Positions 20,628 to 54,376 of a DNA stretch of 64,000 nt are shown piece by piece. Positions within the stretch are counted from its first letter, which is position 1, and each line of letters opens with the position of its first letter. The stretch comes from Candidatus Nitrosomirales archaeon (lineage in GTDB: Archaea; Thermoproteota; Nitrososphaeria; Nitrososphaerales; UBA213). The stretch is from the NCBI GenBank assembly GCA_049199595.1, contig JBMCYV010000012.1:3660-67659 (forward strand). The letters are read 5' to 3'. The translations under genes were made by a program, and so were the position numbers. The notes beneath the pieces are model-generated. The model made no database searches. It was not told where the DNA came from and was given only the letters and a program-made list of their open reading frames with translations.

Positions 20628-22319
20628 ATGATAAAATATTATGTCTTCATTGCTGCTTTAATTGCTGTCTTCCTAATTCCTAGTTTATTTGAAAGTGCTG
20701 ATGCCGCATCTTTTGATGTTCAGCCTAGAAGTGTCGCAAGTGGTACTCCGCTTCACTTTTCAATAATAATGGAGGGGACGTCCCCAAACGGGTTTGTCCC
20801 TGGCGGAGAGTTATTTCTTCAAGTCCGTATCAATGGTCCGTGCACGACTTCCATAGATTTTGGGGGGAGAAGCCTGGCTCATTATGGACTTGATTATGAG
20901 TTGGATGGCCCACAGCCAGGCTGGGCGAGTAACTTTCCATGCTTTCTAACTCTCAGGCCTGGTGAATATGTCGCCTCTTTAGATTATAGGCTAGTTGAAG
21001 CTGACGGGGCGACGACCACCATTCACACTATTGATGTACCATTCACAGTCTTTGGCGATACTGACAATGACGGAGTCCCAGATGCGGACGACAACTGTCC
21101 TTCCAATGCAAATCCCGGTCAAGAAGATGCTGATGAAGACAATATTGGCAACGCATGCGATCCAGATTATGACCGTGATGGAGACGGGGTACTGAACGAT
21201 GATGACAACTGCCCAGACGTGCCTAATCCAGATCAGTTGGATTCTGACAATGACGGACTGGGCTTTGTGTGTGACCCCAATGATTTTGATGGTGATAATG
21301 ACGGGATTGATAACGATCTGGATAATTGCCCGACAGTGTTTAATCCCTTCCAAGACGACTCGGACAATAACGGCACAGGTGATGCATGTGAGACAGATTT
21401 AGATCACGACGGAGTTCCAAATACATCTGACAACTGCCCACTGGATCCAAATTCGGACCAGCTGGACGGAGATCATAATGGCTTTGGAGATGCATGTGAC
21501 GAACCTGATAGAGACGATGATGGCCTAACGAATGACATAGACAATTGTCCTGATACACCAAATCCGGACCAGCTGGAGAGCGACTTTCCGCCTGACGGAC
21601 TGGGCGACGCATGCGATCCTCCTGATACCGATGGCGATGGAATTACCAATGATCTAGATAACTGTCCTAACACCGAAAATACAGCACAGTTTGACGAAGA
21701 TGGGGATGGACAGGGCGATTTGTGTGACGAGGACTATGATCCCGATGGGGATGGACTAACTGGAGCTGGTGACAACTGTATATTTCAATATAACCCAGAC
21801 CAGCATGATGCTAATGATGACGGCGCCGGCGACGCATGCGATCCTTGGTCAGACACAGATTCTGATGGACTAAATGATATGCAGGAGGATCAAATCGGCA
21901 CGGACCCTAACACTTTCACAGAGACAGAAGAAGGGATAAACACCTATTCAGACGGAGAGGCGATCGACTCTTCTGATGATGCTTCGATTGGTCAAGAAGT
22001 GGGCGTAGCCATCGTGCCTCCGGAAGAAGTGGACGCAATAGGCGTCACAGTAACGGATTCTAATGGGGAGGTATTCCTTGAAGATACGCTTATCCCAGAA
22101 TCTCCTGTCGTATTTTCGTTCATACCAGACAAGCCGGGCGAATGGACAGTAGCCGCAGACTTTTTCAATGGTACGATACTTACAGAAACTCTTAGTGTTT
22201 CGTTCTTTGTAGTTCCAGAGTCGCCGATAGGTGTGATAGCTATTCTTGCATCAAGCCTCGCAACTCTTCTATGGTTCATAAGAAGAAGGAACAACGATAG
22301 AAAGACTAGGCTAATCTAA
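20628..22319 (+). CDS. secreted thrombospondin type-3 repeat (Ca-binding) protein with PESPIG C-terminal sorting signal
   Basis: Signal peptide. Seven D.D.DG..D..DNCP...NP.Q.D.D repeats. An Ig-like module. Ends FFVVPESPIGVIAILASSLATLLWFIRRRNN. Confidence 0.9.
   Translation: MIKYYVFIAALIAVFLIPSLFESADAASFDVQPRSVASGTPLHFSIIMEGTSPNGFVPGGELFLQVRINGPCTTSIDFGGRSLAHYGLDYELDGPQPGWASNFPCFLTLRPGEYVASLDYRLVEADGATTTIHTIDVPFTVFGDTDNDGVPDADDNCPSNANPGQEDADEDNIGNACDPDYDRDGDGVLNDDDNCPDVPNPDQLDSDNDGLGFVCDPNDFDGDNDGIDNDLDNCPTVFNPFQDDSDNNGTGDACETDLDHDGVPNTSDNCPLDPNSDQLDGDHNGFGDACDEPDRDDDGLTNDIDNCPDTPNPDQLESDFPPDGLGDACDPPDTDGDGITNDLDNCPNTENTAQFDEDGDGQGDLCDEDYDPDGDGLTGAGDNCIFQYNPDQHDANDDGAGDACDPWSDTDSDGLNDMQEDQIGTDPNTFTETEEGINTYSDGEAIDSSDDASIGQEVGVAIVPPEEVDAIGVTVTDSNGEVFLEDTLIPESPVVFSFIPDKPGEWTVAADFFNGTILTETLSVSFFVVPESPIGVIAILASSLATLLWFIRRRNNDRKTRLI
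21060..21860 (+). repeat. array of seven TSP type-3-like coding repeats
   Basis: DNCPSNANPGQ, DNCPDVPNPDQ, DNCPTVFNPFQ, DNCPLDPNSDQ, DNCPDTPNPDQ, DNCPNTENTAQ, DNCIFQYNPDQ. Confidence 0.85.
22209..22316 (+). other. C-terminal sorting signal, PESPIG class
   Basis: VVPESPIG + 16 hydrophobic residues + RRRNNDRKTR. Confidence 0.65.
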
Positions 22320-34482: not shown

Positions 34483-34704
34483 CATTTCAGTTGATAAAAT
34501 ACGCATATAATCGACCACGGTAGAAACGATTTACTATTGAATAACCGGAATTTCTTCGGTCTTGAAAAATTCCCTAGGTTTCAATTTGCTTACCCATGCT
34601 AAAGATAGTCTTTGGATAAAGCGAAGTTCGTAAGGAATATTGTTACGGTACAAGTTGGCAAATCTACCATAGAAGGCTATATCATTCCACCATTGACAAA
34701 GACT

Positions 34705-35190
34705 ATGAGCAGACTAAACTTGCTAGTTGTTACGGTAGCAATTATCTCAGCTTCGTTATCAAGTATGGGTAGTGCATTTGGACAAGAAATATCAATAATA
34801 TGTCAAGATGAGGAAGGCAATTATGCACTGGGAACTGATCCAGTCAAACTAGGTGCCGAGATATCATGTTTTGTAAATCCATCAGAAATAACAGCGTCTG
34901 CAGATGGTCAGATAATAGTAACTAGTCCTAGCGGTGAGACAGTGATCGATCAAGCGGCAGCCCAGTCGGGTACGACTCCCTTTAATTTTATCGCCAGTGA
35001 AGCAGGATCCTACCTGATCACAGCGACATTCATCGACTTTGAACAGCAAGTCCACGAAGTCAGCGCAAGTGTGAGGGTCTCATCAAATGTAATACCCGAA
35101 TCGCCAATAGGCGCTATTGCCATGGTCGTTTCGGCTATTTCCGCTCTTTTGGGCTTTACTGCGCTACGAAGCTATAGAAAGCGAACCTAG
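34705..35190 (+). CDS. small secreted Ig-like protein with PESPIG C-terminal sorting signal
   Basis: ATG at 34705 gives MSRLNLLVVTVAIISASLSSMGSAFG. The body resembles the C-terminal module of 20628..22319. Ends NVIPESPIGAIAMVVSAISALLGFTALRSYRKRT. Confidence 0.75.
   Translation: MSRLNLLVVTVAIISASLSSMGSAFGQEISIICQDEEGNYALGTDPVKLGAEISCFVNPSEITASADGQIIVTSPSGETVIDQAAAQSGTTPFNFIASEAGSYLITATFIDFEQQVHEVSASVRVSSNVIPESPIGAIAMVVSAISALLGFTALRSYRKRT
35089..35187 (+). other. C-terminal sorting signal, PESPIG class
   Basis: VIPESPIG + ~18 hydrophobic residues + RSYRKRT. Confidence 0.65.
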
Positions 35191-35354: not shown

Positions 35355-35520
35355 ACATAATTGCCGTACACTATGCTGTAAGTCACAATGCTAATAATCT
35401 TGGTACAGAATAACGCATTGAATGTTGAGATTTGGAGCAAGACCACTGAATCTCTTGGCGGTTCTCTCATCTTTAAGAACTAAAGCCTTGAGAAGTGGAG
35501 TATGGTTTGCATCATTATCC
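35355..35520. repeat. direct repeat, copy 2 (pairs with 30913..31075)
   Basis: See 30913..31075. It includes the start codon and first ~33 codons of 35422..35838. Confidence 0.7.
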
Positions 35521-35838
35521 CATGAAGACCGAGTGTTGGCCAGCCTAATAGCCAAAAATATCAAAATAGTGAAGAACGCCACACTCGCGACAGTCATTGC
35601 AAGGATAGTGTGTAAGCTGTTCCAAGGCTTGAAGAATGCTTCATTTCTATCTAGAATCGAAGCATTAGGCAGGCCTATTGCCCAGAACTACAGTGAAAAA
35701 GCCCTCCTGATGGGCAACAAAGACGCCTTAGATTGGGCAAACGATCCGAACTATATCAGGTACCTTGGCATGATGGCATACCACTATAACCCGGCATTCC
35801 CAGTTCATCGCCAAAAGCTTGTCGCGGCTACCGTTTAG
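35422..35838 (+). CDS. hypothetical protein
   Basis: ORF track (138 aa). No motif recognised. Confidence 0.4.
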   Translation: MLRFGARPLNLLAVLSSLRTKALRSGVWFASLSHEDRVLASLIAKNIKIVKNATLATVIARIVCKLFQGLKNASFLSRIEALGRPIAQNYSEKALLMGNKDALDWANDPNYIRYLGMMAYHYNPAFPVHRQKLVAATV

Positions 35839-35860
35839 TGGAGCATGGGGTACAATAAAA

Positions 35861-36172
35861 ATGAAATCAGTATTTGAAAACAGAAAGAAGCGAAGCAGAG
35901 AAGAGATTATTGCATCCATATTGTTTTCCGCAAAAAGAGGCTCTAGCAAAACAGGAATCATGTATGCTAATTACCTGAGCTTCAGCCAACTCAATAAATA
36001 TCTAAGCTTTGGGTTGAAGGCTAAAATACTCTTCATCAGTGATGATGGCAGATATTTTACAACTACAAAAGGACTTGAATACCTGTCATGCTTTGAGCAG
36101 GTTCATAATATTGAAAATAGCGCCTTGGCAAAGAGAAAAGCTCTCACAGAAATTTTAAGCAGTGAAGAATAA
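35861..36172 (+). CDS. small winged-helix DNA-binding protein (COG3432-like), first gene of the glycan operon
   Basis: ATG at 35861: MKSVFENRKKRSREEIIASILFSAKRGSSKTGIMYANYLSFSQLNKYLSFGLKAKIL..YFTTTKGLEYL. Its stop overlaps the next start. Confidence 0.65.
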   Translation: MKSVFENRKKRSREEIIASILFSAKRGSSKTGIMYANYLSFSQLNKYLSFGLKAKILFISDDGRYFTTTKGLEYLSCFEQVHNIENSALAKRKALTEILSSEE

Positions 36173-37110
36173 TGTTAGAAGAGAGAGCCGCAGTTGAACG
36201 GAATACCGACTTGGACAAGGCAATAACAGTTGTAATTCCAACTCTGAATGAAGAGGCTGGAATAGCCAAAGTGTTGGAAGAGCTCCAATCAATGAATATC
36301 AGAAATATACTGGTCATCGATGGATATTCAAGGGATAAGACAGTTGAAGTTGCTACAAAGCTTGGTGCAAAGGCTATTTATCAGCAGGGCAAGGGCAAAA
36401 CTGGAGCACTAAGAACTGCAATTGATGTTGTGCAGACGCCCTACATACTTGTTATGGATGGTGACTTTACCTATGACGCCTCATGTGTAAGCAGACTTGT
36501 TCAGCATATGGGATCATATGATGAGGTCATTGGAGCAAGGATTCCAACTAACAAGGAAAGCATGACGTCAATCCACAAATTCGGAAATAAGATGATAACT
36601 AAGGTGTTCAATTTGCTCCTCAGCACTACCATTACAGACGTCTGCTCTGGCATGTACATTCTAAGGACAGAGGCTGTTCGTGACATGCATCTTTCGACAT
36701 CCGGCTTTGATGTGGAAGTGGAATTAGCTGCACAGATAGCATCATCTGGAAGAATAGCAGAAGTTCCGATAAACTATAGACCTAGAATGGGTAGGCAAAA
36801 ATTGTCCACTTGGAAGCATGGGTTTAAGATAACCAAGAGCATCGTGAATCTCGGACGGACGTATAACCCAGGCGTATTCTATTCTATGCTAGCAAGCTTG
36901 CTCTTGATCCCTGCAAGTTTGATGCTGGGCAATTCGGCATTGGAGTGGATACTTTCAGGAAGAATTAGCTCTCCTTGGTTCTTCCTAGGCATATCTATGG
37001 TCCTTGTAGCAATTCAGGCTATGGGCGTAGGAGTAGTTGCACTCTTGATGAGAAGAAGTGAGCTACGTTCGATAAGAAGGCTCTCAAGAGTCTTAGCCTC
37101 TGTCCAATAA
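36172..37110 (+). CDS. GT2 glycosyltransferase, dolichyl-phosphate-hexose-synthase-like with C-terminal TM helices
   Basis: ITVVIPTLNEEAGIAKVL..ILVIDGYSRDKTVEVA..ILVMDGDFTYD. Two C-terminal TM helices as in AglD/AglJ/DPM1-type enzymes. Confidence 0.85.
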   Translation: MLEERAAVERNTDLDKAITVVIPTLNEEAGIAKVLEELQSMNIRNILVIDGYSRDKTVEVATKLGAKAIYQQGKGKTGALRTAIDVVQTPYILVMDGDFTYDASCVSRLVQHMGSYDEVIGARIPTNKESMTSIHKFGNKMITKVFNLLLSTTITDVCSGMYILRTEAVRDMHLSTSGFDVEVELAAQIASSGRIAEVPINYRPRMGRQKLSTWKHGFKITKSIVNLGRTYNPGVFYSMLASLLLIPASLMLGNSALEWILSGRISSPWFFLGISMVLVAIQAMGVGVVALLMRRSELRSIRRLSRVLASVQ

Positions 37111-37116
37111 AGGATA

Positions 37117-38097
37117 TTGGTAAAAGTGATACATGAAGTGCAAGACACTGGGAAAACAGAATCGGATGGGATGGATCAGGCTCCCACTGAAAGCAAAGAA
37201 GTGCAGCATTTACAAGATTCATCGTCTGAGGAGCAAATTCAACAGCGACTACATGAGTTAGAATCTCAGAACATTGCCTTAAGACAAAAATTATGGCAGT
37301 CGCAAAATAAGGGACCATTATCGACAGGCATCATACTATTGAGCATAGGCGCTGTCATCCTAATGTTTTCCTTCTTGTCTAATTTGACAATCTTGGCATT
37401 CATAGGGCTTGGGATAACTTTATGGGGCCTGCTTCTCATATACATATCACCCTCCAGACACGTTCGTGCGGAATTGCTCAATTCAGTATCATCTTCCATA
37501 CAAAAGTGCTTTGACAGCCTAGTGACTTATATGGGATATAGCGGAGAAGTCATATTCTTCCACCCAAAGAGCCTGACAGGACTTGGCCAAGGTTACGTCT
37601 TCATACCCCATTATGTGGCAAGGCTGGAAGCAAACCCGAGCGCCAAGCTGGATGCTCTAAATCTTTTACCGTACAGTAACGAAACGAACATCCCTTCGAC
37701 TTATCTCACTCCTAAAGGCGTATTTCTTACTGCACCAAGCCAGGGACTTGTAGACCTCTTTGAGAAAGAGCTCGAAGTGAATTTTGCCTTGGTGAACCTA
37801 GAGTACATCCAAGAAGCACTTCCAAAACTCTTAGTTGAAGACCTTAAGATGGCCGATGATATGTCTATAGAAAAGTATGAGGACGGAAATATTCTCGTGA
37901 AAGTTACTGACGGTCCGTGCACTGAAATGTGTCGGTTTGTGAGTAATCATACCCGCCTAGGAAATCACTTAGGCTGTCCTCTTTGTTCAGCACTTGCACT
38001 AGTAATCAGCAAGGTTAGCGCAAGGCCAGTAATCATCAAGGAAACAAATATCCTCGACAACGTGATCTCAACTACATATTCTGAGCTGAATCCCTAA
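37117..38097 (+). CDS. hypothetical membrane protein (coiled-coil N-terminus, 2 TM, soluble C-domain)
   Basis: ORF track (TTG start). Tightly packed in the operon. No family recognised. Confidence 0.45.
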   Translation: MVKVIHEVQDTGKTESDGMDQAPTESKEVQHLQDSSSEEQIQQRLHELESQNIALRQKLWQSQNKGPLSTGIILLSIGAVILMFSFLSNLTILAFIGLGITLWGLLLIYISPSRHVRAELLNSVSSSIQKCFDSLVTYMGYSGEVIFFHPKSLTGLGQGYVFIPHYVARLEANPSAKLDALNLLPYSNETNIPSTYLTPKGVFLTAPSQGLVDLFEKELEVNFALVNLEYIQEALPKLLVEDLKMADDMSIEKYEDGNILVKVTDGPCTEMCRFVSNHTRLGNHLGCPLCSALALVISKVSARPVIIKETNILDNVISTTYSELNP

Positions 38098-38307
38098 TTG
38101 GTTCTAGCCTTTTCGTTCTGGGATATTGCATTGTGGTTAGCAGGCACATCTCTAACAATGTTGGTGACATCGGAGTTCTTAGGACCTCACTTGGGTAGGA
38201 AACATACTTTTTTCGAAGTAAAAAAATTAAGAACTGTCGCGTTAGTATTTGCAGTAGCCTTTGTTTTTACAATAGGAATTAGAATTCTAACTCTGACCAT
38301 AAAGTAG
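38098..38307 (+). CDS. small 2-TM membrane protein
   Basis: ORF track. It begins 1 nt after the previous stop. Two hydrophobic helices. Confidence 0.4.
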   Translation: MVLAFSFWDIALWLAGTSLTMLVTSEFLGPHLGRKHTFFEVKKLRTVALVFAVAFVFTIGIRILTLTIK

Positions 38308-38332
38308 CCAAAGCTGAGATACTGAAAACAAT

Positions 38333-40579
38333 ATGATAGTAGGACATCTCATTCATCCGTCGTTACAACGATCTATTCCGAATGTAGCTAATTCCTTGCT
38401 TACAAACAGAATATTGTTAATAAAAGCTGGCATAATCATAGCTTCTGCTATATTCTTTTATTCGTACGATCTGTCAATCGTCTTCTCGAATGCACTGAAA
38501 TTCACTACAGGCAACATCACAAATTACGTGTTAACTATTCCCTTCTTATCTGCATTCATAATCTATAGAAAGCGCGCTATGCTGAAAATAGTCGCGTCAA
38601 AGGCTAGTCGGATCGGAACAAGGACCATAAGACTGGATGATGCTGCAGGCGTTACTTTATGTCTTCTTGCAATAATAATCTACACTGCTGGTTCTGGTAC
38701 ACTATATACACTCGAGTACCATATTCTCACTCTGCCACTGTTCCTTGCTGGAGGCACTTTGGTTTTGTTTGACTTTGCAACTCTGCGTCATGTCTTTGTT
38801 GCGATTCTGCTTACCTTGTATATCCAGCCGCCACCAGGCCAGCTGGTTTCAGAATTGGCGGCAGATCTATCATGGACGAGCGCAGTAATCGTTGAAGCGC
38901 TGCTCGCTTCTGTTGGAGTTCCTATATCCCTAGACACCAGTTTTGGTGCACCGGCACTAATAATAATGCTGGACAACGATCACAAGATACCATTCTTTGT
39001 CGGCGAGCCAAGTTCTGGGGTCTTTTCAACTATAGGGCTATCCCTTTTTGCCGTTTTTGTGGCATACATTATCCGCGGTAAGATGTGGAAAAGGATGGCA
39101 CTATTTGCAAGTGGTTTCCCGGTATTTTATATGCTAAATACTCTCAGAATTGCAATCGTCATTTCCTTGTGGTACCTTTGGGGCCAAGAGATATCTGAAG
39201 CATACCACCTTGTTTCAGGTTCATTGATGGTTGCTTTCGGAACTTTCCTAATACTCATAATGGGAGAAAAGATATTCAAATTGAAAATTGGAAAGCAGGA
39301 AATCAAAACATCAAGATGCAGTATCTGTGAGAAATGCTCGCAACTACGTGAACCATTTTGTTTCATATGCGGTAGGCTACTTTCTAACCTCAAACACCCA
39401 TTTGGCAGAAGTACTGTTGAAAGAAGCGCTGTACTAGTGTTCATTTTGCTTCTCGGAATTGCGGTTAACATGGAAAATAATTCCCCGAGCATTACAAAGA
39501 GTACCCGATTATCCGACTTGGATATATCAACGATCGAAGGTCCGGAAACGACTGAATATTTTGTCCCCGCCATTGATGGATGGGATCAGGTTTACGCATA
39601 CAGAGATCAAAGAATAGAATCAATCCTAAACCAAGATGCCGCTCTAGCTTATCGGTATATTCCAAATGCTGATTTCATTACACTAAGTGACGGAACAAGT
39701 GTGCCAACCAATTCTGAAAACCGATTTTCAGTTTATACTAGCATACAAATATCAACAGGCCATCACATATGGGAAGATTCCCTTGTTACGCATCCTTCTA
39801 GGATAGGCAGGCCTGCGGCCACTATCCTTGAATCAGATAACGTGGATATTTCAGATGACAAGCAGGGTCGTTTCCTTATGTTCAAGAGAGTCGGATCTGA
39901 GGCTACTGAGGCTGTATTTTATTGGTTTGAAAGAGTTCCTCTAAAGTTTGGTTCTCAATTTGAAAGCCGAAATGTTCTCATAAGCATTTGGGCGAATACA
40001 GATGCACTAACTAAAAGTGGTATCCTTCAAAGGCCCGATGATTCGGAGAATATTAAGAAGTTGTACTTCTCACTTTCTGCCCCGATTGCAGACTATTGGC
40101 AACAACAATCCACGACGCTCAACGGCAGCGAATTACTCTACACATTCGTTTCTCAAAATGCATTAGTCATTCTAATGCTAGTCATCATACCGCTTGCGGC
40201 GTACTCTGTATACTTTATCAGGAACAAATCCATATCATCGTCTAGAAAGTTCAAGGCATACCAGAGGCTCGATATCGCAGATAGATCTTTTCTTGATACG
40301 CTATTGCCAACCTTAAATGGCAGCAGACATGTTTTTGGACATACCATTGCAATTAATTATCAGCAAGTATCCGGTCAGCGTCTTTCTGATGACCAATTAT
40401 TGGAAAGACTAAAGATGGCACGGAATTCAGGATTGGTAAACGACATAGTTATTTCTGTCAAGGACGAACCTCATCTAGTATGGAAGGCAGCCTTTCGTTA
40501 CGATAACAAGAGTGGCGCAAGCTGGGTGACCAAGATAAAAACACCCGTAAGCATATTTCAGAGGATCAGGTTATGGTAG
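38333..40579 (+). CDS. exosortase/archaeosortase-family protein (thaumarchaeosortase-like), Ser at the Cys position, fused to a zinc ribbon, EpsI-like ectodomain and cytoplasmic tail
   Basis: Eight-TM core with FFVGEPSSGVFS (CSG-motif position, S227 = AGT 39011-39013), YMLNTLRIAIV (Arg) and AYHLVSGSLM (His). CSICEKC-x7-CFIC zinc ribbon (39317-39370). TM helix, ~225-aa ectodomain, TM helix, ~115-aa tail. Confidence 0.75.
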   Translation: MIVGHLIHPSLQRSIPNVANSLLTNRILLIKAGIIIASAIFFYSYDLSIVFSNALKFTTGNITNYVLTIPFLSAFIIYRKRAMLKIVASKASRIGTRTIRLDDAAGVTLCLLAIIIYTAGSGTLYTLEYHILTLPLFLAGGTLVLFDFATLRHVFVAILLTLYIQPPPGQLVSELAADLSWTSAVIVEALLASVGVPISLDTSFGAPALIIMLDNDHKIPFFVGEPSSGVFSTIGLSLFAVFVAYIIRGKMWKRMALFASGFPVFYMLNTLRIAIVISLWYLWGQEISEAYHLVSGSLMVAFGTFLILIMGEKIFKLKIGKQEIKTSRCSICEKCSQLREPFCFICGRLLSNLKHPFGRSTVERSAVLVFILLLGIAVNMENNSPSITKSTRLSDLDISTIEGPETTEYFVPAIDGWDQVYAYRDQRIESILNQDAALAYRYIPNADFITLSDGTSVPTNSENRFSVYTSIQISTGHHIWEDSLVTHPSRIGRPAATILESDNVDISDDKQGRFLMFKRVGSEATEAVFYWFERVPLKFGSQFESRNVLISIWANTDALTKSGILQRPDDSENIKKLYFSLSAPIADYWQQQSTTLNGSELLYTFVSQNALVILMLVIIPLAAYSVYFIRNKSISSSRKFKAYQRLDIADRSFLDTLLPTLNGSRHVFGHTIAINYQQVSGQRLSDDQLLERLKMARNSGLVNDIVISVKDEPHLVWKAAFRYDNKSGASWVTKIKTPVSIFQRIRLW

Positions 40580-41655
40580 AATTGGTAATAGTGGTCGTTG
40601 TGTTGCTCTTTGTTCCTTATGCCATAGTAGGGGCAATTATCCTTGCTCACAATGGCAGAGTCAAGGTGAACAAGGACTATAAGTATCGACCATCGGTGTC
40701 TGTTTTCCTTCCTACATTTAACGAAGAGAAAAATATAGCAAAGAAACTGGACAATTTGCTTGCGCAAACATACCCTATAAGTGAGATCCTGGTATTTGAT
40801 TGCTCCACTGACAACACTGTGAAAATAGTCAAGGAATATCAAAAAAGAATGTCAACGATAAAGCTGATTGAACAAAAGCAAAGAATAGGAATGGCAAGAA
40901 CCCTCAATGAAGCATTCACGCTTGCCAATGGTGAAATCTTTGTGAAGACAGATTGTGACTCGATATCTCGACCAAATGCTCTGAATGAGTTAGTAGCAAA
41001 TTTTGGCGATCATCGTGTGGGAGGAGCTACAGGGATATGTATAGCAGAAAATGGGGTCGAAAAGTACTTTAGAAAAGTGATGACAGCAATACAAGTAGCT
41101 GAAACAAACATAGATAGTACTCTGATTGCACACGCGACAAGCCTGCTTGCATTCCGGAGTTCCCTACTGGAACCTGTAAGTGCTGATTCACTAGCTGATG
41201 ACACAGAAGAGTTCCTGCTGATACGTAGGAAGGGCTACAGAACGGTAATTGATACGGCTGTAGTCTCGCACGAAGAAGTACCCAGTGACTATATGACAAG
41301 AAGAACCCAGAAAGATAGAAGGTCTCAGGGCATCGTCAAGCTATTGTTGCAGAATATTACCATGCCGTTTAACCCAAAATATAAGAAATATGGTGCAATT
41401 GTGTTGCCTCTAGAGTGGTTTATTCTGGTATTCTCTCCTATTTTGCTTATTGCTTTCGGCGTGCTTATAGGTCTAGTACTTTACGCTGTACACCAACTAT
41501 TGCCACTTGCTGTATTTTCAGCAATTGGTATTGCAGCAGTGAAAAGATCGAACTTTATTTCTGCCATCATTGATACTCAATTAAGCGGTCTTATGGGTCT
41601 AGTCAGGGCGTTTACAAAACGTAATGCGCAGGGCATGTGGGTAAAGGCGAGATAA
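40573..41655 (+). CDS. membrane GT2 glycosyltransferase, processive-synthase-like
   Basis: VSVFLPTFNEEKNIAKKL..ILVFDCSTDNT.., KTDCDS, ADDTEEF, QKDRRSQG (QxxRW-like), with flanking TM helices. A 7-nt overlap with the sortase gene. Confidence 0.8.
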   Translation: MVELVIVVVVLLFVPYAIVGAIILAHNGRVKVNKDYKYRPSVSVFLPTFNEEKNIAKKLDNLLAQTYPISEILVFDCSTDNTVKIVKEYQKRMSTIKLIEQKQRIGMARTLNEAFTLANGEIFVKTDCDSISRPNALNELVANFGDHRVGGATGICIAENGVEKYFRKVMTAIQVAETNIDSTLIAHATSLLAFRSSLLEPVSADSLADDTEEFLLIRRKGYRTVIDTAVVSHEEVPSDYMTRRTQKDRRSQGIVKLLLQNITMPFNPKYKKYGAIVLPLEWFILVFSPILLIAFGVLIGLVLYAVHQLLPLAVFSAIGIAAVKRSNFISAIIDTQLSGLMGLVRAFTKRNAQGMWVKAR

Positions 41656-41658
41656 TCG

Positions 41659-42621
41659 TTGGAAACTATAGCTGAAACCCAATCATCAATCTTCTTGGAG
41701 CTAATACGTACCATAGGCGTACCTGGCATGATAGAAGGCAAGAATGGGAGATTTGACAAACAAGTAAAGGAATTGGCCGATCTGAACAAGGTCGCGTTAG
41801 TTTATTCTTTGGCATGCGGACATGAAGCAAAGGATCTGACTGCTAGGTACCAGCTAATGATGGATACATTAGCTGAAATTAGCACCCTCTTTAACTCCAA
41901 CGGAATAAAGTATTCAATATTTAAAACGATAAAGCCTTTTCCAACGACCCCTTCAGATATTGATGTGTTGCTATCACAAGAGGTCTTTGGTAAGGCACAA
42001 TCTCTGCTATTATCTTCAGGCTATAGGAAGACGGCTAATGATGCATACAGTAGCACATTGGAAAAAGAGATGATTATAGATTTGCAACAGCAACCATCTG
42101 TGTCAAATATCCCATATCTTCCAAAGAATCTTTTGATTGAAAATACCAGTGTTAGGAAGATAAATGGAGCCGACGTGTCTACCTTAAATCCAGAGGCAGA
42201 ATTGCTTGTAATCGCATCACATAGCTTGTACAAAGAGCAATTGTTTACATTGAATGACTATTATTCGATTACACTCCTTGCTGAGCAGATTGACTTTTCA
42301 AAGCTTGTCAACTTGGCTAAGATTGCCAACGTTTTTGAAGCATTGCAAATCGTAGTCGGTCTTTGCTTACAGATTACGGAATCAGTGTTTGGTAATGGAT
42401 TGAGGATATGTGAACTAGCCCGGCTTATTCAAGCACAGAAGGGAGGTCGTGTGTATACGATGCCTGTAAAGTTCCCTTTTTCACTGGTAATTAGGGCATT
42501 AATCAATAGGGCAAGTAAAGACAAAGAAATGCGGCAGAAAATGCTGCCCGCAATTCTTAGGATTGCAAAACCCGGCCAACTGTTCAAGCTCCTCTCACAT
42601 CTAACGAGAAGGACATACTGA
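41659..42621 (+). CDS. uncharacterised nucleotidyltransferase-like protein (NTP_transf_5-like)
   Basis: GIKYSIFKTIKPFPTTPSDIDVLLSQEVFGKAQSLLLSSGY resembles the ..KG....yp..R...DiDlLV....a...L...Gy core of that family. By eye only. Confidence 0.45.
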   Translation: METIAETQSSIFLELIRTIGVPGMIEGKNGRFDKQVKELADLNKVALVYSLACGHEAKDLTARYQLMMDTLAEISTLFNSNGIKYSIFKTIKPFPTTPSDIDVLLSQEVFGKAQSLLLSSGYRKTANDAYSSTLEKEMIIDLQQQPSVSNIPYLPKNLLIENTSVRKINGADVSTLNPEAELLVIASHSLYKEQLFTLNDYYSITLLAEQIDFSKLVNLAKIANVFEALQIVVGLCLQITESVFGNGLRICELARLIQAQKGGRVYTMPVKFPFSLVIRALINRASKDKEMRQKMLPAILRIAKPGQLFKLLSHLTRRTY

Positions 42622-42626
42622 TCATA

Positions 42627-43703
42627 ATGAAAACTCTGCTAATTGCGTACGAGCTTTCACCTCCGTGGGATAACGGTCTAAAGGTCTATGGCAGGGGATT
42701 GAAGAATTCGCTAGAAAATATTGGCGACATGAATCTCACTACTATTACCAATATTAACGACATTTCAAGCAATAATTTGAAAGATTATGATTTTGTACAC
42801 GTTGTTCAGACTGGTATTCATCCATTCTCCGTGGCTCTTAAACTCTTCAAGCAGGCTACAATATTCAAACATATTGTTACGCCTTCGATTGGACTGAGGA
42901 ATTCACTTTCAACAAAACTTTGCTACAGCATGGTAAATAGCTTGCAGAAGCGACTAGTACGTTGCTTCTCTTCAAAATTTGTTGCAATTTCGTATTTCAT
43001 GAATAGTAACAACCTGATAATACCGCCGTCTATCGATACATCAACCTTTGTGAATATTGCCCGGCCAAACCAGGAAAAGATTTTGTCATTGTTGGACAAT
43101 AGTCCTACAAAATTTGGAATACATAACATCGCAAAGCGTTCAGACGGAGTAATATTGTATAGTGGACCGCTGACCAAGGACAGATTTCCATATGCTACGG
43201 TGTTGAATGCACTGAAGCAAACAAAATCAAGCCTTCTCATAGTGGGAAGAAGCACTAATAACGGAGCTGAACACGGTATGGTAGAAGAAATAATTGATCA
43301 TGTCAAGAAATTGGATCTAGAGGATAGAATATCGATTGTACAAAAGTTGCTGACAGAAGATGAAAAGGTAGATCTATTGAATTTTGCCGACATGGTGATA
43401 CAGCCATTCACAACCAACACTCAGGTGTATGTTGCTGTGGATCCACCCATATTTCTCCTGGAGGCAATGTCTTGCGGCAAGCCCGTTATTACTTCAAAGA
43501 CATACTCTTTTCAGTCACTGATAAAAAATGGCTACAACGGCTATGCTATCAACTGGGATGATCCAAGTGCTGTTGACGAGGCGCTAAGAGGCTGCCAGGC
43601 TACGAGTAAGCTTGGCCTAAATGCTAGGCAGACTATATTGAAGCAATTCTCTACTGAATTTGTTTCAGAAACAATCCAAGGGATCTACAATGATTACAAC
43701 TAA
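42627..43703 (+). CDS. GT-B (GT4-like) glycosyltransferase
   Basis: C-terminal FLLEAMSCGKPVITSKTYSFQSLIKNGYNGYAI. Confidence 0.8.
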   Translation: MKTLLIAYELSPPWDNGLKVYGRGLKNSLENIGDMNLTTITNINDISSNNLKDYDFVHVVQTGIHPFSVALKLFKQATIFKHIVTPSIGLRNSLSTKLCYSMVNSLQKRLVRCFSSKFVAISYFMNSNNLIIPPSIDTSTFVNIARPNQEKILSLLDNSPTKFGIHNIAKRSDGVILYSGPLTKDRFPYATVLNALKQTKSSLLIVGRSTNNGAEHGMVEEIIDHVKKLDLEDRISIVQKLLTEDEKVDLLNFADMVIQPFTTNTQVYVAVDPPIFLLEAMSCGKPVITSKTYSFQSLIKNGYNGYAINWDDPSAVDEALRGCQATSKLGLNARQTILKQFSTEFVSETIQGIYNDYN

Positions 43704-44379
43704 TCGAATCCCTCCGGCCATTATCTTTTTTGGCCCAGATGGATCTGGCAAGACTACACAGGCTGAATTGCTAATCAAGGAACTGAGGAGAAATGGTATC
43801 AGAAGTAGGAAATTATGGCTGCGGTCGCTTCACACATTCGCATTTCTGATATCAAAGGTCGCAATGCATACCATGGGTCTTCAAAGCGTCTATGATTTCA
43901 GGGCTAGATACTCCCACAAGAAATTCTTCAAAGGTATCTGGTACACCATTGAATTTTGCAGTATACTTCCACTTATCTTGTTCAGACTGCAATTGCCGTT
44001 AATGAAAGGATACACCATCGTCGCAGAAAGATATGTGATTGACTGGATTGTCTCCCTATCTTACGTTAGCCGAAACGAACGTCTATTAGATAGCAGTTTC
44101 GGGAGAGCGGCACTAAAGTTCATACCCAAGAATTCTTCACTAATTTATATAGATGCCACGTATGATGCAATTAGTTCACGAGGAAGAAACGAAGACAGCT
44201 TGGAGTATATCGAGTTTCAACGGAGATTATATCAAGAGATTGCGCGCAGGCTAAACGCAAAGGTAATAGATACATCAGATAAAACTCTCCAAGAGGTACA
44301 CAAATTGATATGCCAATATTCGCTCAACTCAAACACCTCAGCCTCCCAAGACATAGGACTAAGAAGAGATCTTGAGTAA
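43690..44379 (+). CDS. thymidylate-kinase-like P-loop kinase with a hydrophobic insertion
   Basis: ATG at 43690: MITTNRIPPAIIFFGPDGSGKTTQAELLIKEL.. (Walker A). ..AERYVIDWIVSLSY (DRY-like). A ~55-aa hydrophobic insert lies between them. Confidence 0.55.
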   Translation: MITTNRIPPAIIFFGPDGSGKTTQAELLIKELRRNGIRSRKLWLRSLHTFAFLISKVAMHTMGLQSVYDFRARYSHKKFFKGIWYTIEFCSILPLILFRLQLPLMKGYTIVAERYVIDWIVSLSYVSRNERLLDSSFGRAALKFIPKNSSLIYIDATYDAISSRGRNEDSLEYIEFQRRLYQEIARRLNAKVIDTSDKTLQEVHKLICQYSLNSNTSASQDIGLRRDLE

Positions 44380-44875
44380 ATCATCACTGCTCCTGATGGT
44401 TACGGTAGGGCTTGTACTCCTACTGACAAATCTTGACAATTCTAGTGCTGCGCCAGTAGAGCAAATCGATACAGCACTTCCGAATGCTGAAGGGGAGAAA
44501 ATATCGTCGATAATTAACGATGCGTTGAGCGCAATTCATGCAGCTGAAGCCTCGGGTGCCAATGTGTCACCGCTGGTGGATCAGTTCAATATCGCAATAG
44601 AGCTATTACGGCTAGCTGAGGGACCTGATTTTGGTTCATGCAGTTCTTTTGATCAGTGCACAGATAACGCGAACCAAATATTCGTATCAATCATAAATGA
44701 CGCAGATGGGCTGAGCGAGAACGCAAAGATGGAATACTATGAGAATATGGCTGTAGGAGAGATTTATGCAATTCTTATAGCATTTGCCTTATCGTTTGTT
44801 GGATTGTACCTTTATGGGCAATACAAATCCCATGAGCTAAAGAGATTTCTTGAAATGGAAGTTAAGGAGAATTAA
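44372..44875 (+). CDS. hypothetical secreted protein with C-terminal TM anchor
   Basis: Signal-like N-terminus (LLLMVTVGLVLLLTNLDNSSA), a helical body, and a C-terminal helix IYAILIAFALSFVGLYLYG. Confidence 0.45.
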   Translation: MSKSSLLLMVTVGLVLLLTNLDNSSAAPVEQIDTALPNAEGEKISSIINDALSAIHAAEASGANVSPLVDQFNIAIELLRLAEGPDFGSCSSFDQCTDNANQIFVSIINDADGLSENAKMEYYENMAVGEIYAILIAFALSFVGLYLYGQYKSHELKRFLEMEVKEN

Positions 44876-44878
44876 GAA

Positions 44879-45526
44879 ATGGATCAACCTTTATCGCATT
44901 GGAGAATCGCTCAAGAATTGATACGGTCAAGAAAGTTCCTAATAGCTTTCGCTTCTCTTGTCGCCCTGTTATCTCCATTGGCACTGATCTCTAATTCTGC
45001 CGGTGACCAAAAAGAAGGATATCTTACAATGATTACTCTTGGCAGTAGCATGAAAGCAGATGACTACTTCCCAAGTGCTAATAACACAGTAAACCTTTCT
45101 GAGCCTATAAAATGGTACATCAAGGTTTACAATGGAATGGACAAATCAGAATATCTCTCTCTCAGATTGAAGCTGCTCAACTCTACACAAACCATACCTG
45201 ATGATGTATCGAATACGCCCAGCCCAGTTCCTGAGCTAATTGAGTATCGGCAGTTGATATCAAAGCAATCTGAAGTGATAGTTCCCTTAGAGTGGAAAAT
45301 AACTGACATCGACAAGGGGGAAAGTGTTGTAACCATCCGGGAATTGATGATAAATGGTGAGAGAATAGATAACTTAGACATCAATAGTATAAATGGCCAA
45401 AACTTCAGAATAGTCCTAGAGCTCTGGAAATACGAGAGTGACAGTGGAGATTTTAGTTTTGTGTGGTCCTCAAACAATAAAGAGGCAAGTGTGTGGAATC
45501 AGATTTGGTTCAATATAAAGAATTAG
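44879..45526 (+). CDS. hypothetical N-terminally anchored protein
   Basis: ORF track. One N-terminal TM helix and a beta-rich ectodomain. Packed in the operon. Confidence 0.45.
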   Translation: MDQPLSHWRIAQELIRSRKFLIAFASLVALLSPLALISNSAGDQKEGYLTMITLGSSMKADDYFPSANNTVNLSEPIKWYIKVYNGMDKSEYLSLRLKLLNSTQTIPDDVSNTPSPVPELIEYRQLISKQSEVIVPLEWKITDIDKGESVVTIRELMINGERIDNLDINSINGQNFRIVLELWKYESDSGDFSFVWSSNNKEASVWNQIWFNIKN

Positions 45527-46137
45527 AAATCGGCCTTATCCAGTTAAAGGTTCTTGAAATAGTTCACACTCGTAAATGCAAGAAGGTACAAGAAATTGTA
45601 GAAATACTAAGACAGTCAGATTCAGCTCTTACCATTGACGAGATAAGAGAAGCTATTGAATCACTTCATGACGATGGAAAGCTCGTTTTGAATGAACCCA
45701 GACTGCAAGGGTCTTTTTTCAGCCACATTACAAAGAATTTTGATTTCATCGCTCTTCCACTCTGGCTAAGTTTAGCCGCAATCATCCTGACCATGATTAC
45801 GATTTATGTTACACCAGATATCCAAGAGCTACTACATGTAAGAATCATTTCAGGCTCTGCAGTTGTACTACTTATTCCTGGCTATGGATTGATTGGCTTG
45901 CTATTTCCCAGCAAAGATACTACAACACTTGAGCGCATAGGGTTCAGCTTTGCAATTAGTCTAGCACTAATTCCAATCCTGTGGCTCGTCATGACTTATT
46001 CGCCACTTGAAGCGAGTATAGATTCAATGGTGTTGGGCATGAGTGCCGCCGGAGCTTTATTGATATCGACTGGCGCATATAGGCAATTTTCGGCAAAAAA
46101 GGAGAGGGTTGCAGTGATGGTAGTAGATAACAAATGA
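45493..46137 (+). CDS. membrane protein with N-terminal wHTH-like domain and 4 TM helices
   Basis: LKVLEIVHTRKCKKVQEIVEILRQSDSALTIDEIREAIESLHDDGKLVL, followed by four hydrophobic helices. GTG/TTG start uncertain. Confidence 0.45.
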   Translation: MESDLVQYKELEIGLIQLKVLEIVHTRKCKKVQEIVEILRQSDSALTIDEIREAIESLHDDGKLVLNEPRLQGSFFSHITKNFDFIALPLWLSLAAIILTMITIYVTPDIQELLHVRIISGSAVVLLIPGYGLIGLLFPSKDTTTLERIGFSFAISLALIPILWLVMTYSPLEASIDSMVLGMSAAGALLISTGAYRQFSAKKERVAVMVVDNK

Positions 46138-47621
46138 AGCCAAAAACTTCGTTTAACAAATTTGCAAAAGGATCATATTTCCTAATACTGGACAATCTTA
46201 CGAATCTCGGCATTGGGGCGATCTTCTGGGTCGTTCTAGCAAAGATCGCTGAACCTGGTGTAATAGGACAAGCAATGGTCATCACGGGTTTTGCAACTAT
46301 CTTCATTGCGTTCACTGGGCATGGCATCCAGATCGGACTGTCAAAATACATCTCTGAATATGATGCAAGGAACATGCCAAATACTGTTAGACGGTTATTG
46401 AGAAACGGGATCAAAGGTGGTCTAATGATAAGTGCTGTATTGGTCGTAGCGATTTCGTTATTGTCGGGTCAAATATCAGAATCGGCCTATCAAAATGAAT
46501 CACTTGCATTGTTACTTGTATTTTTGATCGTGACATTCGTTCCCACACAGACCGTCATGTGGGTGCTCATTGGCGCATTCCAAGGGATGCAGGAAATGAA
46601 GTATGTTACGGCAACAGACCTCATATTCCAACTTTCAAGAATGGGTTTTGCCGTGTTTGGTGTTCTATATGGTCTTGATGTTTTTGGAATTCTTCTTGGA
46701 TTTGCACTTGCTTCATTTCTATCCTTAGGGGTTTGTTATTTCTACCTTTTACCGCGAGCGATTCCGAAATCAACAGACCAAAAGGAATCTGAATCAAAAG
46801 AAGGAATGAAACAAGTAACTCGCTTCACCAGCTTCAACTATTTCGAGATAGGAATTAAGACATTCAGTGTGCAACTTGGGATACTCGTCCTTGGTACACA
46901 AAGCTTCGAGTGGGCTGCCTTTTACGGATTGGCGTTGCTTATTTCAAAAATTGTAGGGTCATTTTCGCGATCGGTAGGAATGGCACTTCTTCCTGCGGCT
47001 TCGGTCCAGCTAGCAACTGGCAGCAAAGTCGAACTGCGAAATATGGTCAATACTGCTGTAAGAATTTCTACAATGATCAGCGGTTTTGGATTTATTATCC
47101 TAGTTATAGATCCAACGTACTTCCTTAACCTAATATCAGACAAATATGTCGAAGCTGCGTTGGCTCTGCGGATCTTGGCTGCATCTGCAATAATTACTGC
47201 TATGGCCTCGATATTTACATCACTCCTAAATGCCTCAAATCGGGCCAAAGATGTGGCCAAAATAGGATTTATTTCATCTATGATCGGCATTGCGCTCACG
47301 CTTATTCTCCCACAATTCATTGGCTTGGAAGGAGCTGCACTTGCATTTCTTACTAGCTCAATAATTAACTTGAGCCTAGCATTACTTGCGCTCAAAAAGG
47401 AAAAGATCACTGCCTCATCGCGAAGCATGATTAGACCATTTGTTGCTATCATAAGCGGAATTCTTGTAGGTCAAGTGTTTGTATTTTTCAACCAAATATT
47501 ATTGGGCATAATTATCGCAATTGTCTGCTATATCGGGTTTTGCATAGCTTACCGAGTTACCACAAGAGTGGAAATAAAGAAATTGATTAGCATAGCAGTA
47601 AACAAAAAGACTGCAGAGTAA
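46134..47621 (+). CDS. Wzx-like oligosaccharide/polysaccharide flippase (MOP superfamily)
   Basis: About 12-14 TM helices. N-terminal ..FAKGSYFLILDNLTNLGIGAIFWVVLAKIAEPGVIGQ.. is typical of the polysaccharide-biosynthesis flippase family. Confidence 0.8.
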   Translation: MKPKTSFNKFAKGSYFLILDNLTNLGIGAIFWVVLAKIAEPGVIGQAMVITGFATIFIAFTGHGIQIGLSKYISEYDARNMPNTVRRLLRNGIKGGLMISAVLVVAISLLSGQISESAYQNESLALLLVFLIVTFVPTQTVMWVLIGAFQGMQEMKYVTATDLIFQLSRMGFAVFGVLYGLDVFGILLGFALASFLSLGVCYFYLLPRAIPKSTDQKESESKEGMKQVTRFTSFNYFEIGIKTFSVQLGILVLGTQSFEWAAFYGLALLISKIVGSFSRSVGMALLPAASVQLATGSKVELRNMVNTAVRISTMISGFGFIILVIDPTYFLNLISDKYVEAALALRILAASAIITAMASIFTSLLNASNRAKDVAKIGFISSMIGIALTLILPQFIGLEGAALAFLTSSIINLSLALLALKKEKITASSRSMIRPFVAIISGILVGQVFVFFNQILLGIIIAIVCYIGFCIAYRVTTRVEIKKLISIAVNKKTAE

Positions 47622-48797: not shown

Positions 48798-48907
48798 GGT
48801 TGTTGTCGTGCAATGATAAAGTTGAGCCAACCAAGTACTGTTTTCGCTATATATCACCCAAGTTACATAAGGCTTATGAAGAAACTCTACAACAAAGTGA
48901 CCAGTCA

Positions 48908-49669
48908 ATGCCAAGTCCAAAGCTAGCTATTATTCTTGCCGCTGGAATGGGTTCGAGACTAGGTGAGTACAGTAAGCATCTACCAAAGACCCTGTTAACA
49001 GTAGGTAATTCCACAATATTTGATAGGATGGTCGTAGGTTTAAGTATGATCGGGATAAAAGATATTGTCGTTATCACAGGTCACGCTGCGTCAACTTTGG
49101 AGACTCATGCCCTATCATATTCTAGCAAACTTGTAAATAATAATGTCAATTTTCATTTTATTCGGAATAACAATCTTGATATCGGAAACATCTACTCCTT
49201 TTGGCTAGCAAGAGGCAGAATGAACGAGGATTTTATCTTACTCAACAGCGATGTCGTTTTTGATTACGGGATTCTGAATCTTTTGAAAAATGACATACAC
49301 AGCTCTTCTTTGGTCATTGATGACTCCAAAACTCTCGGTGAAGAAGAAATGAAGGTTAATGTAACGGAAGGAGAGATCATTAAAGAAATCAGCAAGAAGT
49401 TGGATCCGATCTCCGCCGACGGCGAATACATTGGAATCATGAAGCTCTCAAGTGGTGATGCTACAAAAGTTATAGAACAGGTGGAGAGACTCATGTCTGA
49501 AAAGCAATTTCCGCTATATTATGAAGATGCACTGAGGAGAATCGCAAATAATAATGATTTTCTCGTTGCCTGCAGTACAAAGGGTTTGCCATGGACTGAA
49601 ATAGATACAGTTGAAGACATGCAATATGCCCAAACTATCATTTTACCACAATTGCAAAGTCCAGCATGA
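48908..49669 (+). CDS. sugar/alcohol-phosphate nucleotidyl(cytidylyl)transferase
   Basis: The in-frame ATG at 48908 gives MPSPKLAIILAAGMGSRLG..LPKTLL, the G-x-G-x-R-L signature at the N-terminus. The ORF track starts at TTG 48800. Confidence 0.75.
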   Translation: MPSPKLAIILAAGMGSRLGEYSKHLPKTLLTVGNSTIFDRMVVGLSMIGIKDIVVITGHAASTLETHALSYSSKLVNNNVNFHFIRNNNLDIGNIYSFWLARGRMNEDFILLNSDVVFDYGILNLLKNDIHSSSLVIDDSKTLGEEEMKVNVTEGEIIKEISKKLDPISADGEYIGIMKLSSGDATKVIEQVERLMSEKQFPLYYEDALRRIANNNDFLVACSTKGLPWTEIDTVEDMQYAQTIILPQLQSPA

Positions 49670-53804: not shown

Positions 53805-53848
53805 ACATTCTGGCACGCTCGGCTCACTTGTAAGAGGTTTTGCAAGAA

Positions 53849-54376
53849 ATGCAATTGAATGGGAGAATATTCAGACCAATTGTGATAGCTTTTATTATTA
53901 TTGTCTTCCAACCAAGTTGGGCTAGCGCAGAAATTCCTCAGAATGAATACATTCTCAACATCGATGGGTATGATTTTCCAGTAGATTACACGATCACAGG
54001 TGCGACTATTACTTCGATTCTTGCTGACAAAGATGCTGCCGCACTCCGGATATTAATTAATGCCCAAGATGCTGGAATTCTGACCATCGCGCTTCCAAGG
54101 ATTATGATAGACTCTCTGGATGGCGAAGCCGATAAGGCATTTGTTGTTCACCTGTCAGAAGAAGGTATCGATGATGGCGGAAATCCAATTCAAACAATTG
54201 AAATGTATGATGACTCGTCCGACTACCGAATATTACAATTTGAATTCACCGAGAGGACAACACAAATACAGATAACAGGTACGCACATTGCCCCGGAATT
54301 CGGCCCGATCTACGTTCTTGCCGGACTGATGATCTTGACCATGCTCATCGCACGAATTGCAAGAAATAGCCAGTAG
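53849..54376 (+). CDS. small secreted protein with PEFG C-terminal sorting signal
   Basis: Signal peptide. One copy of the ~105-aa module found twice in 11848..13083 (..ILTIALPRIMIDSLDGEADKAFVVHL..ILQFEFTERTTQIQITGT). Ends HIAPEFGPIYVLAGLMILTMLIARIARNSQ. Confidence 0.8.
   Translation: MQLNGRIFRPIVIAFIIIVFQPSWASAEIPQNEYILNIDGYDFPVDYTITGATITSILADKDAAALRILINAQDAGILTIALPRIMIDSLDGEADKAFVVHLSEEGIDDGGNPIQTIEMYDDSSDYRILQFEFTERTTQIQITGTHIAPEFGPIYVLAGLMILTMLIARIARNSQ
54290..54373 (+). other. C-terminal sorting signal, PEFG class
   Basis: APEFG + 16 hydrophobic residues + RIARNSQ. Confidence 0.65.

Follow-up and report, generated by a model that had tools for sequence, protein, structure and literature searches.

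The window analysed here is a 64,000-nucleotide stretch of Candidatus Nitrosomirales archaeon DNA (contig JBMCYV010000012.1 of assembly GCA_049199595.1, positions 3,660 to 67,659), and the subject of this work is a single gene within it which encodes a protein of the exosortase/archaeosortase type bearing a serine at the position of the family's cysteine. The gene lies among co-directional genes associated with glycan synthesis, which are described further below. The gene and the elements of its 748 amino acid (aa) open reading frame (ORF), which include several transmembrane (TM) segments and two domains assigned from AlphaFold2 (AF2) models, are as follows.

38333..40579, forward strand: the whole gene, a 748-aa ORF combining a Ser-type exosortase with a zinc ribbon, an EpsI-like ectodomain and a winged-helix tail
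38405..39286, forward strand: polytopic exosortase/archaeosortase core, about aa 25-318 (PF09721 at aa 55-311; TIGR04178 at aa 223-310; hydropathy)
39005..39019, forward strand: putative nucleophile motif E225-P-S227-S-G229, with Ser (AGT, 39011-39013) where the family has Cys
39137..39148, forward strand: Asn269-x-x-Arg272 motif (conserved in Ser types; motif definition from PMC1569441)
39197..39220, forward strand: Glu289-x-x-His292-x-x-x-Gly296 motif, of which E289 is characteristic of Ser types
39317..39370, forward strand: predicted cytoplasmic CxxC-x10-CxxC zinc ribbon, aa 329-346 (invariant Cys columns; weak Pfam zinc-ribbon matches in homologs)
39419..39472, forward strand: outward-leading TM helix, aa 363-380 (hydropathy)
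39473..40156, forward strand: predicted extracytoplasmic EpsI-like (DUF3485-related) alpha/beta domain, aa 381-608 (AF2 model; hhalign to the domain of the homolog P0278; colinearity with XrtW)
40157..40225, forward strand: inward-leading TM helix, aa 609-631 (hydropathy)
40274..40489, forward strand: predicted winged-helix domain on the cytoplasmic side, aa 648-719, beyond which the C-terminal extension is of low confidence (AF2 model; PDB matches)

The original prediction assigned this protein to the exosortase/archaeosortase family, and hidden Markov model searches support that assignment. The core matches the Pfam model Exosortase_EpsH (PF09721) over aa 55-311 with E=1.7e-22 and 80.5 bits (cutoff 25.7), and it passes the NCBIfam exo_archaeo signature TIGR04178 with 51.4 bits (cutoff 23); all 12 models specific to named Xrt/Art subfamilies scored below their curated cutoffs, the best of them being XrtD at 61.4 bits versus 400. 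The EpsH family has been defined by Cys-x-Gly, Asn-x-x-Arg and His-x-x-x-Gly motifs (Haft 2006, PMC1569441). The latter two are present as Asn269-Thr-Leu-Arg272 (within LNTLR) and His292-Leu-Val-Ser-Gly296 (within YHLVSG), and the family-defining Cys of the first is absent, the protein having instead Ser227-Ser-Gly within FFVGEPSSGVFS, with the serine encoded by AGT at 39011-39013. The previously noted spacing of these hallmark motifs (S227-R272-H292) proved to be exact, and the hydropathy profile together with the positive-inside pattern fits a polytopic core in which the triad would lie near the outer face of consecutive TM helices. On these matches and motifs, the 748-aa protein is a divergent member of the exosortase/archaeosortase superfamily (MEROPS C106) that stands outside every named subfamily. 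Neither a second exosortase-like gene (paralog) in the window nor a solved structure related by sequence to the protein was found. The identical protein (P0001), from a Candidatus Nitrosomirales metagenome-assembled genome, has a public gene model (NCBI/JGI) of 666 aa, which begins at Met83. As residues Y43, D46, L47, F51, Y65, P70, R79 and K80 upstream of M83 (window 38333-38578) are conserved among homologs, the deposited model probably omits the first two TM helices.

The serine at position 227 is not peculiar to this genome. A database search returned 82 homologs, nearly all of 670-770 aa, and the other named sources among them are Nitrosocaldaceae, Nitrosocaldus, Nitrososphaera and 'Thaumarchaeota'. 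In an alignment of 38 sequences all 32 closer homologs read GEPSSG, and five distant homologs, at 26-31% identity, place Cys in the Ser227 column as part of D[IV]ACSG or a near match to it, in agreement with the earlier proposal that the serine occupies the catalytic-Cys position; S228, G229, N269, R272 and H292 are invariant across the alignment. Overall, Cys occupies this column in 80-88 Cys-type relatives. A profile search of 1.84 billion representative proteins gave 256 clusters at E<=1e-30, and the top 149 representative clusters comprise 83 with Cys-Arg-His, 31 with Ser-Arg-His, approximately 12 with other residues, and a remainder that is truncated. When a neighbour-joining tree was computed without the motif columns, the window protein fell inside a purely Ser clade of 91 representative clusters, with a crown of 80 clusters reading G-E-P-S and a sister group of 11 reading G-V-A-S. 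The next outgroups read D-V-A-C, the sister lineages are Cys-type (and belong to Bathyarchaeia wherever they are named), and the root is reconstructed as Cys.

The codons in use are informative as well. Among 34 Ser-type DNA loci with a recognisable motif, Ser227 is encoded by AGC in 20, AGT in 10 and TCA in 4 (30 AGY), and the Cys-type loci with a motif match have TGC or TGT; both AGY and TCA are used inside the Nitrosocaldus-like GLFST subgroup. Since a change between AGY and TCA needs two substitutions, the serine itself appears to be maintained by selection. A base-call error was among the explanations first offered for the serine, and AGT is one transversion from TGT. Nonetheless, that a sequencing error or a strain-specific mutation has disguised an ordinary Cys enzyme is next to inconceivable, given that Ser is found in 34 independent loci and 91 clusters, from different samples and genera, and in the form of three Ser codons. 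Nor was any alternative conserved Cys found in the core that might enter the active site from elsewhere, the best candidate being C110 (46/80). On the alignments and the tree, the replacement of Cys by Ser is a feature of a whole lineage, the Nitrososphaeria branch of the family, and not a base-call error, and its distribution suggests that a group thought to be all-cysteine also has a serine-based branch.

The residues that accompany Ser227 are strongly conserved. Within the GEPSSG crown (n=80), conservation reaches at least 97% at each of G224, E225, S227, S228, G229, N269, R272, E289, H292 and G296, and among Ser types overall N269 is kept in 94 of 97, R272 in 96 of 97 and H292 in 94 of 97. 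E225 is found in 80 of 97 Ser types, where the Cys types carry I, V or L, and E289, three residues before His292, is found in 85 of 97 Ser types versus 15 of 80 Cys types. E289 is already in place in the G-V-A-S group, and it is also seen in the sporadic Ser types P0125 and P0133, whose nearest Cys neighbours have Q or G. The motif series from D-V-A-C through G-V-A-S to G-E-P-S describes a remodelling that is consistent with Ser chemistry, and from the counts for E225 and E289 we infer a Ser-His-Glu arrangement.

Candidate substrates are also encoded nearby. Where the original prediction counted five, we find four in the window. All four are secreted proteins whose C-terminus combines a P-E motif with a TM helix and a basic tail, and one is encoded within the operon.

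34612..35190, forward strand: candidate substrate, a small secreted protein of 192 aa ending ..VIPESPIG-TM-RSYRKRT, encoded 3 kb upstream within the same run of co-directional genes
20628..22319, forward strand: candidate substrate of 563 aa with thrombospondin-type-3 repeats and the C-terminal signal ..VVPESPIG-TM-RRRNNDRK
11848..13083, reverse strand: possible substrate of 411 aa, with a PEFG-type C-terminal signal ..IVPEFG-TM-..R
53840..54376, forward strand: possible substrate of 178 aa, with a PEFG-type C-terminal signal ..IAPEFG-TM-ARIARNSQ

NCBIfam models gave no match to the PEFG/PESPIG tails at E<=0.01. Dedicated small PE-signal proteins of about 160-215 aa, in which a signal peptide is combined with a tail of the [VI]PE-x / TM / basic type, lie inside or beside the module at other loci. 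The G-V-A-S loci L034, L036, L037 and L038 each encode an ortholog about 215 aa long (63-75% identity among the four) that carries a signal peptide and ends VVPE[LV]xP-TM-KRRK, its gene standing in L034 between a DUF7982-type gene and DUF1616; the Nitrosocaldus locus L012 encodes a small protein ending VVPESIIG that is weakly homologous to the 192-aa protein of the window, and the Bathyarchaeial Cys-type locus L014 has, in the same position, a small protein ending PVPEPGT. Furthermore, VPEFP C-terminal signals occur near both L003 (Cys-type) and L007 (Ser-type). The presence of PE-signal neighbours beside Cys and Ser types alike argues for Ser types that still sort proteins. At L003, a molybdopterin-oxidoreductase-domain (Oxidored_molyb) protein (8724-9728, reverse strand) with a VPEFP / TM / KRRHST tail directly adjoins the Cys-type exosortase, and as a sorting substrate it would be an enzyme and not a structural protein. 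The 20628-22319 protein of the window reaches 202 bits with the model of the MYXO-CTERM cohesion protein MtsC, short of the cutoff of 350; proteins with thrombospondin-type-3-like repeats have been reported to rise under H2O2 stress in Nitrosopumilus (PMC6593220).

Taken together, we put the probability that the gene encodes an active Ser-nucleophile intramembrane protein-sorting enzyme of the exosortase/archaeosortase family at roughly 65%. In such a mechanism, Sec-exported proteins would stay tethered in the membrane by their C-terminus, where a [VI]PE-x motif precedes a TM helix and a basic tail, and the PE motif would dock at the outer face of the membrane, where Ser227, His292 and Arg272 are predicted to lie at or within three consecutive TM helices. 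His292 would activate Ser227, with the clade-specific Glu289 and/or Glu225 perhaps serving to orient the histidine, and the attack of Ser227 on the signal would give an acyl ester, instead of a thioester, as the intermediate. The cleaved protein would then be passed to an acceptor (a lipid or a glycan made by the operon), or else released. The EpsI-like ectodomain probably handles the substrate or the acceptor outside the cell, and the enzyme's connection to cytoplasmic partners or to regulation probably runs through the zinc ribbon and winged helix.

A number of observations count against an active serine enzyme. That E225 and E289 vary together with Ser reflects, for the most part, one event in the phylogeny. 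In ArtA, which is the only characterised archaeosortase, the Cys is critical (PMC9263693), and a PE-signal gene lies within 10 kb in only 3 of approximately 30 crown loci, so that most crown loci have no substrate gene nearby. PEFG-type signals are annotated in Nitrosopumilus too (PMC6593220), and pattern-based searches, which could miss members, found no named Nitrosopumilus-family (genus-level) member of the enzyme family; the two PEFG proteins of the window may therefore belong to a different enzyme. Last, L016, P0202 and P0225 keep the architecture without any catalytic residues, from which it follows that the scaffold has a role independent of catalysis. The Cys requirement in ArtA, the scarcity of substrate genes and the persistence of the architecture after loss of the nucleophile, the His and even the zinc ribbon, with ectodomain and winged helix kept, are all compatible with a pseudo-enzyme, which would cleave nothing and whose ectodomain, zinc ribbon and winged helix would let it scaffold, sense or regulate the glycan/exopolysaccharide (EPS) machinery at the membrane. 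The same may be said of a set of proteins of about 500 aa (P0268, P0297 and P0316, the last of these named as Bathyarchaeia) in which the core, zinc ribbon, two TM helices and winged helix are kept, the ectodomain is deleted and the His is lost (xSSG, FLxLGG); this subfamily looks decayed and is possibly purely regulatory.

We regard a pseudo-enzyme, the main rival reading, as unlikely for the window protein, though it carries real weight. Conservation in the 80 crown clusters is 97% or higher at S227, S228, G229, N269, R272, H292 and G296, both classes of Ser codon are in use, and dedicated PE-signal proteins have been kept beside Ser-type genes. The His, furthermore, is lost in the truly decayed lineages and never in the Ser clade. 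In some 13-15 family members residue 227 is F, Y, W, T or N, and the His is gone from most of these as well. Together with the short Bathyarchaeial forms and the degenerate copy at L016, they make decay visible elsewhere in the family, and the Nitrososphaeria Ser clade shows none. As to the possibilities first offered for the serine, base-call error falls away, and a Ser nucleophile is favoured over a pseudo-enzyme, albeit short of proof. The relative at L016 (9929-12004) is a 691-aa protein in a metagenome-assembled genome of 'Candidatus Sulfotelmatobacter' (Acidobacteriota); it has neither Cys/Ser, His nor zinc ribbon, retains the ectodomain and winged helix, and may represent a mis-binned archaeal contig or a horizontal transfer. 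Two further genes, those for P0087 (L017 2503-4629) and P0092 (L018 6001-7224), were considered as stand-alone ectodomain and winged-helix proteins of a split EpsH/EpsI type and rejected as pieces of frameshifted or truncated full-length genes: L017 holds a frameshifted full-length gene, and the start of P0092 falls inside the last core helix.

The regions that follow the core bear out much of what had been predicted for them. The zinc-ribbon cysteines follow the pattern C329-x2-C332-x10-C343-x2-C346, as originally described; C332, C343 and C346 are invariant in 38 homologs and C329 is at least 90% conserved, and homologs give weak DZR/Zn_ribbon Pfam matches. The TM helices expected on either side of the ectodomain are found at about aa 363-380 and 609-631. 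Between them, directly after the core and zinc ribbon, lies the ectodomain of about 228 aa, which in the AF2 model (predicted local distance difference test score, pLDDT, 89.6) is an alpha/beta domain with a long C-terminal helix entering the second TM helix. Its own sequence gave no match at E<=1, either to Pfam DUF3485 (PF11984) or to an NCBIfam model. Among 28 homolog ectodomains there were no NCBIfam matches and only weak PF11984 matches in 4 (best E=0.02), and a Pfam search of ten full-length Cys types gave no EpsI match. P0278, a truncated Cys-type member, passes PF11984 with 27.1 bits versus a cutoff of 26.1, its domain aligns with the ectodomain profile in hhalign at 99.8% (E=3e-30), and the protein is colinear with the XrtW model over positions 3-430 of 494 in one stretch. 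DUF3485 we take to be the Pfam counterpart of EpsI/TIGR02914. Because P0278 passes DUF3485, aligns with XrtW and matches the ectodomain profile, an EpsI-like nature of the ectodomain is supported by transitive homology and by position; the resemblance seen in the original prediction thus holds through P0278, but not through any direct match of the window's own domain. EpsI is fused to some EpsH proteins, and its function is unknown (Haft 2006, PMC1569441).

The C-terminal tail of about 117 aa had been described as of unknown fold. In the AF2 model (pLDDT 81) its topology is H-H-H-beta-beta, which is that of a winged helix, and the top 50 PDB matches are mostly PadR, LmrR, RosR, PerR and Cdc6-WH (E=2e-3 to 2e-2, TM-score about 0.45-0.6). 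DNA binding is not implied, since the domain is near neutral in charge (mean net charge +0.4, helix 3 -0.4). A relationship of the tail to the product of the neighbouring HTH_45/Sso10a gene was considered, and no sequence relation is detectable. It is tempting to combine these features in a broader proposal, namely that a whole branch switched within the membrane from Cys-His-Arg to Ser-His-(Glu), as recorded by the D-V-A-C/G-V-A-S/G-E-P-S series, and that the protein is in addition a signalling device whose ectodomain would report surface or glycan status and whose zinc ribbon and winged helix would control expression of the glycan operon or its assembly. We hold this combination to be speculative and quite doubtful as a whole.

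By sequence comparison, the closest described architecture is the bacterial exosortase-EpsI fusion represented by XrtD (TIGR04152) and XrtW (NF038142), to which the Ser, the zinc ribbon and the winged helix are additions. Of the specific models, these two score best on the core (E=8e-17 and 2e-12, respectively), and they share with the window protein the order of polytopic core, TM helix and extracytoplasmic EpsI-type domain, as well as a link to EPS loci. However, the scores lie far under the cutoffs (61 vs 400 bits; 46 vs 425), and the window protein differs in having Ser for Cys, a zinc ribbon inserted behind the core and, further along, a second TM helix and a winged helix on the cytoplasmic side; it is, moreover, archaeal (Nitrososphaeria, Bathyarchaeia). 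The broader EpsH/EpsI and PEP-CTERM system (Haft 2006, PMC1569441) resembles the present one in its N-x-x-R and H-x-x-x-G motifs, EPS loci, fused or adjacent EpsI and P-E C-terminal signals, and the Cys-type relative at L014 is itself near a VPEPGT signal. In contrast, the present system has S-S-G for C-x-G and signals of the forms [VI]PES[PI]IG, VPEF[GP] and VVPE[LV]xP instead of PEP, and these archaea are without an outer membrane.

Haloferax volcanii ArtA (MEROPS C106) and ArtB-ArtF belong to the same superfamily with an active site predicted at the outer face, and ArtA targets secreted surface proteins of archaea through their tripartite C-terminal signals (PMC6098224, PMC9263693), a role that is predicted for the window enzyme. 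ArtA differs in its Cys173, in its recognition of PGF-CTERM and in having no ectodomain, zinc ribbon or winged helix, and the ArtC and ArtF models score 19-20 bits on the window protein versus cutoffs of 100-150. The Cys-type members of the same fused family (such as P0077, P0118 and L014, those named being Bathyarchaeia) share its core, zinc ribbon, ectodomain and winged helix, along with a DUF7982 / DUF1616 / Wzx neighbourhood and an in-operon PE-signal protein. They differ in reading D-[IVL]-A-C-S-G, with TGC or TGT codons, in the absence of E225 and the rarity of E289 (15/80), and in being 26-31% identical to the window protein. A serine-based precedent for the processing of C-terminal sorting signals exists in rhombosortase, a Ser-His intramembrane sorting protease of the rhomboid family, although its fold and family are unrelated and the resemblance would be convergent.

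Exosortases and archaeosortases have been described as cysteine enzymes in which the Cys, Arg and His are almost perfectly conserved (PMC1569441), and a review places the archaeosortases in a subset of Euryarchaeota (PMC6098224). We found no published account of a Ser-type fused family, the mentions of exosortases with Nitrososphaera or ammonia-oxidizing archaea being only incidental, and no described counterpart for a zinc ribbon and cytoplasmic winged helix on a sorting enzyme. The present family extends the superfamily to ammonia-oxidizing archaea and Bathyarchaeia. Furthermore, the chemistry of the superfamily (one-step transpeptidation versus plain cleavage) is still unsettled, and a Ser clade that keeps the Arg and His, together with an apparent intermediate grade, would provide a natural experiment on its mechanism.

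The genomic neighbourhood of the gene is that of a glycan or EPS locus. The co-directional, tightly packed block at 35422..47621 is the operon foreseen in the original prediction, but its 13 genes become 14 ORFs once the conserved 69-aa ORF at 38098..38307 is included. In order, these encode a 138-aa protein, an HTH_45/Sso10a protein, a family 2 glycosyltransferase (GT2), a DUF7982-type protein, the 69-aa two-TM ORF and the exosortase, and then a second GT2, an NTP_transf_5 protein, a GT1, a P-loop protein, two small proteins, a DUF1616 protein and a Wzx flippase. The principal members are listed here.

37117..38097, forward strand: DUF7982-type membrane protein, a conserved partner (syntenic homologs carry PF25939 in Ser- and Cys-type loci)
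38098..38307, forward strand: conserved ORF of 69 aa with two TM helices and a TTG start, unannotated-looking, which separates the partner gene from the exosortase gene
40573..41655, forward strand: GT2 glycosyltransferase with a C-terminal TM region, overlapping the exosortase gene by 7 nucleotides as previously noted
41659..42621, forward strand: NTP_transf_5 protein, which P0008 and P0011 carry as a fusion with the exosortase
45493..47621, forward strand: DUF1616 protein and Wzx-type flippase (Polysacc_synt), the flippase being fused to the exosortase in P0027

This gene order is kept in L001, L019, L020 and two further contigs, a gene of 67-70 aa stands at the position of the 69-aa ORF in L001, L002, L017, L019 and L020, and the core of DUF7982, small ORF, DUF1616 and Wzx recurs in Nitrosocaldaceae and in Cys-type loci. 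The link to an EPS operon that had been drawn from the window is thus conserved across loci. The conserved pairing with a dedicated small PE-signal protein and a glycan operon provides a compact, testable system in which to study how the cell surface or biofilm matrix of these archaea is built. Fusions of the exosortase occur in P0008, P0011, P0027, P0116 and P0127, with either a C-terminal NTP_transf_5 domain (about 1070 aa) or an N-terminal extension, whether a Polysacc_synt flippase or another (957-1238 aa).

The tight embedding of the gene in a glycan operon and the flippase or NTP_transf_5 fusions of some genomes, taken with the conserved catalytic residues and the many loci without a substrate gene, might also fit an active enzyme of altered chemistry or target, that is, a hydrolase that releases proteins rather than anchoring them, or an enzyme acting on a lipid-linked glycan intermediate of the operon. 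To our knowledge, no exosortase acts on glycans. PE-type protein signals stand beside both Ser and Cys types, and Cys-type exosortases typically sit in operons of the same kind (PMC1569441). An altered chemistry or target is, on balance, improbable, and a serine-based protein-sorting enzyme is the reading that we prefer.

Two smaller features adjoin the operon. Small winged-helix genes of the HTH_45/Sso10a type cluster just upstream of it (window 35819-36172; L001 2001-7750). At its close (window 47742-50483) lie genes for Fe-ADH_2 (glycerol-1-phosphate-dehydrogenase-like), NTP_transferase and CDP-alcohol phosphatidyltransferase proteins, a trio which is kept in L001, L019 and L020 and which suggests decoration of the glycan with a CDP-activated alcohol phosphate in a teichoic-acid-like manner.

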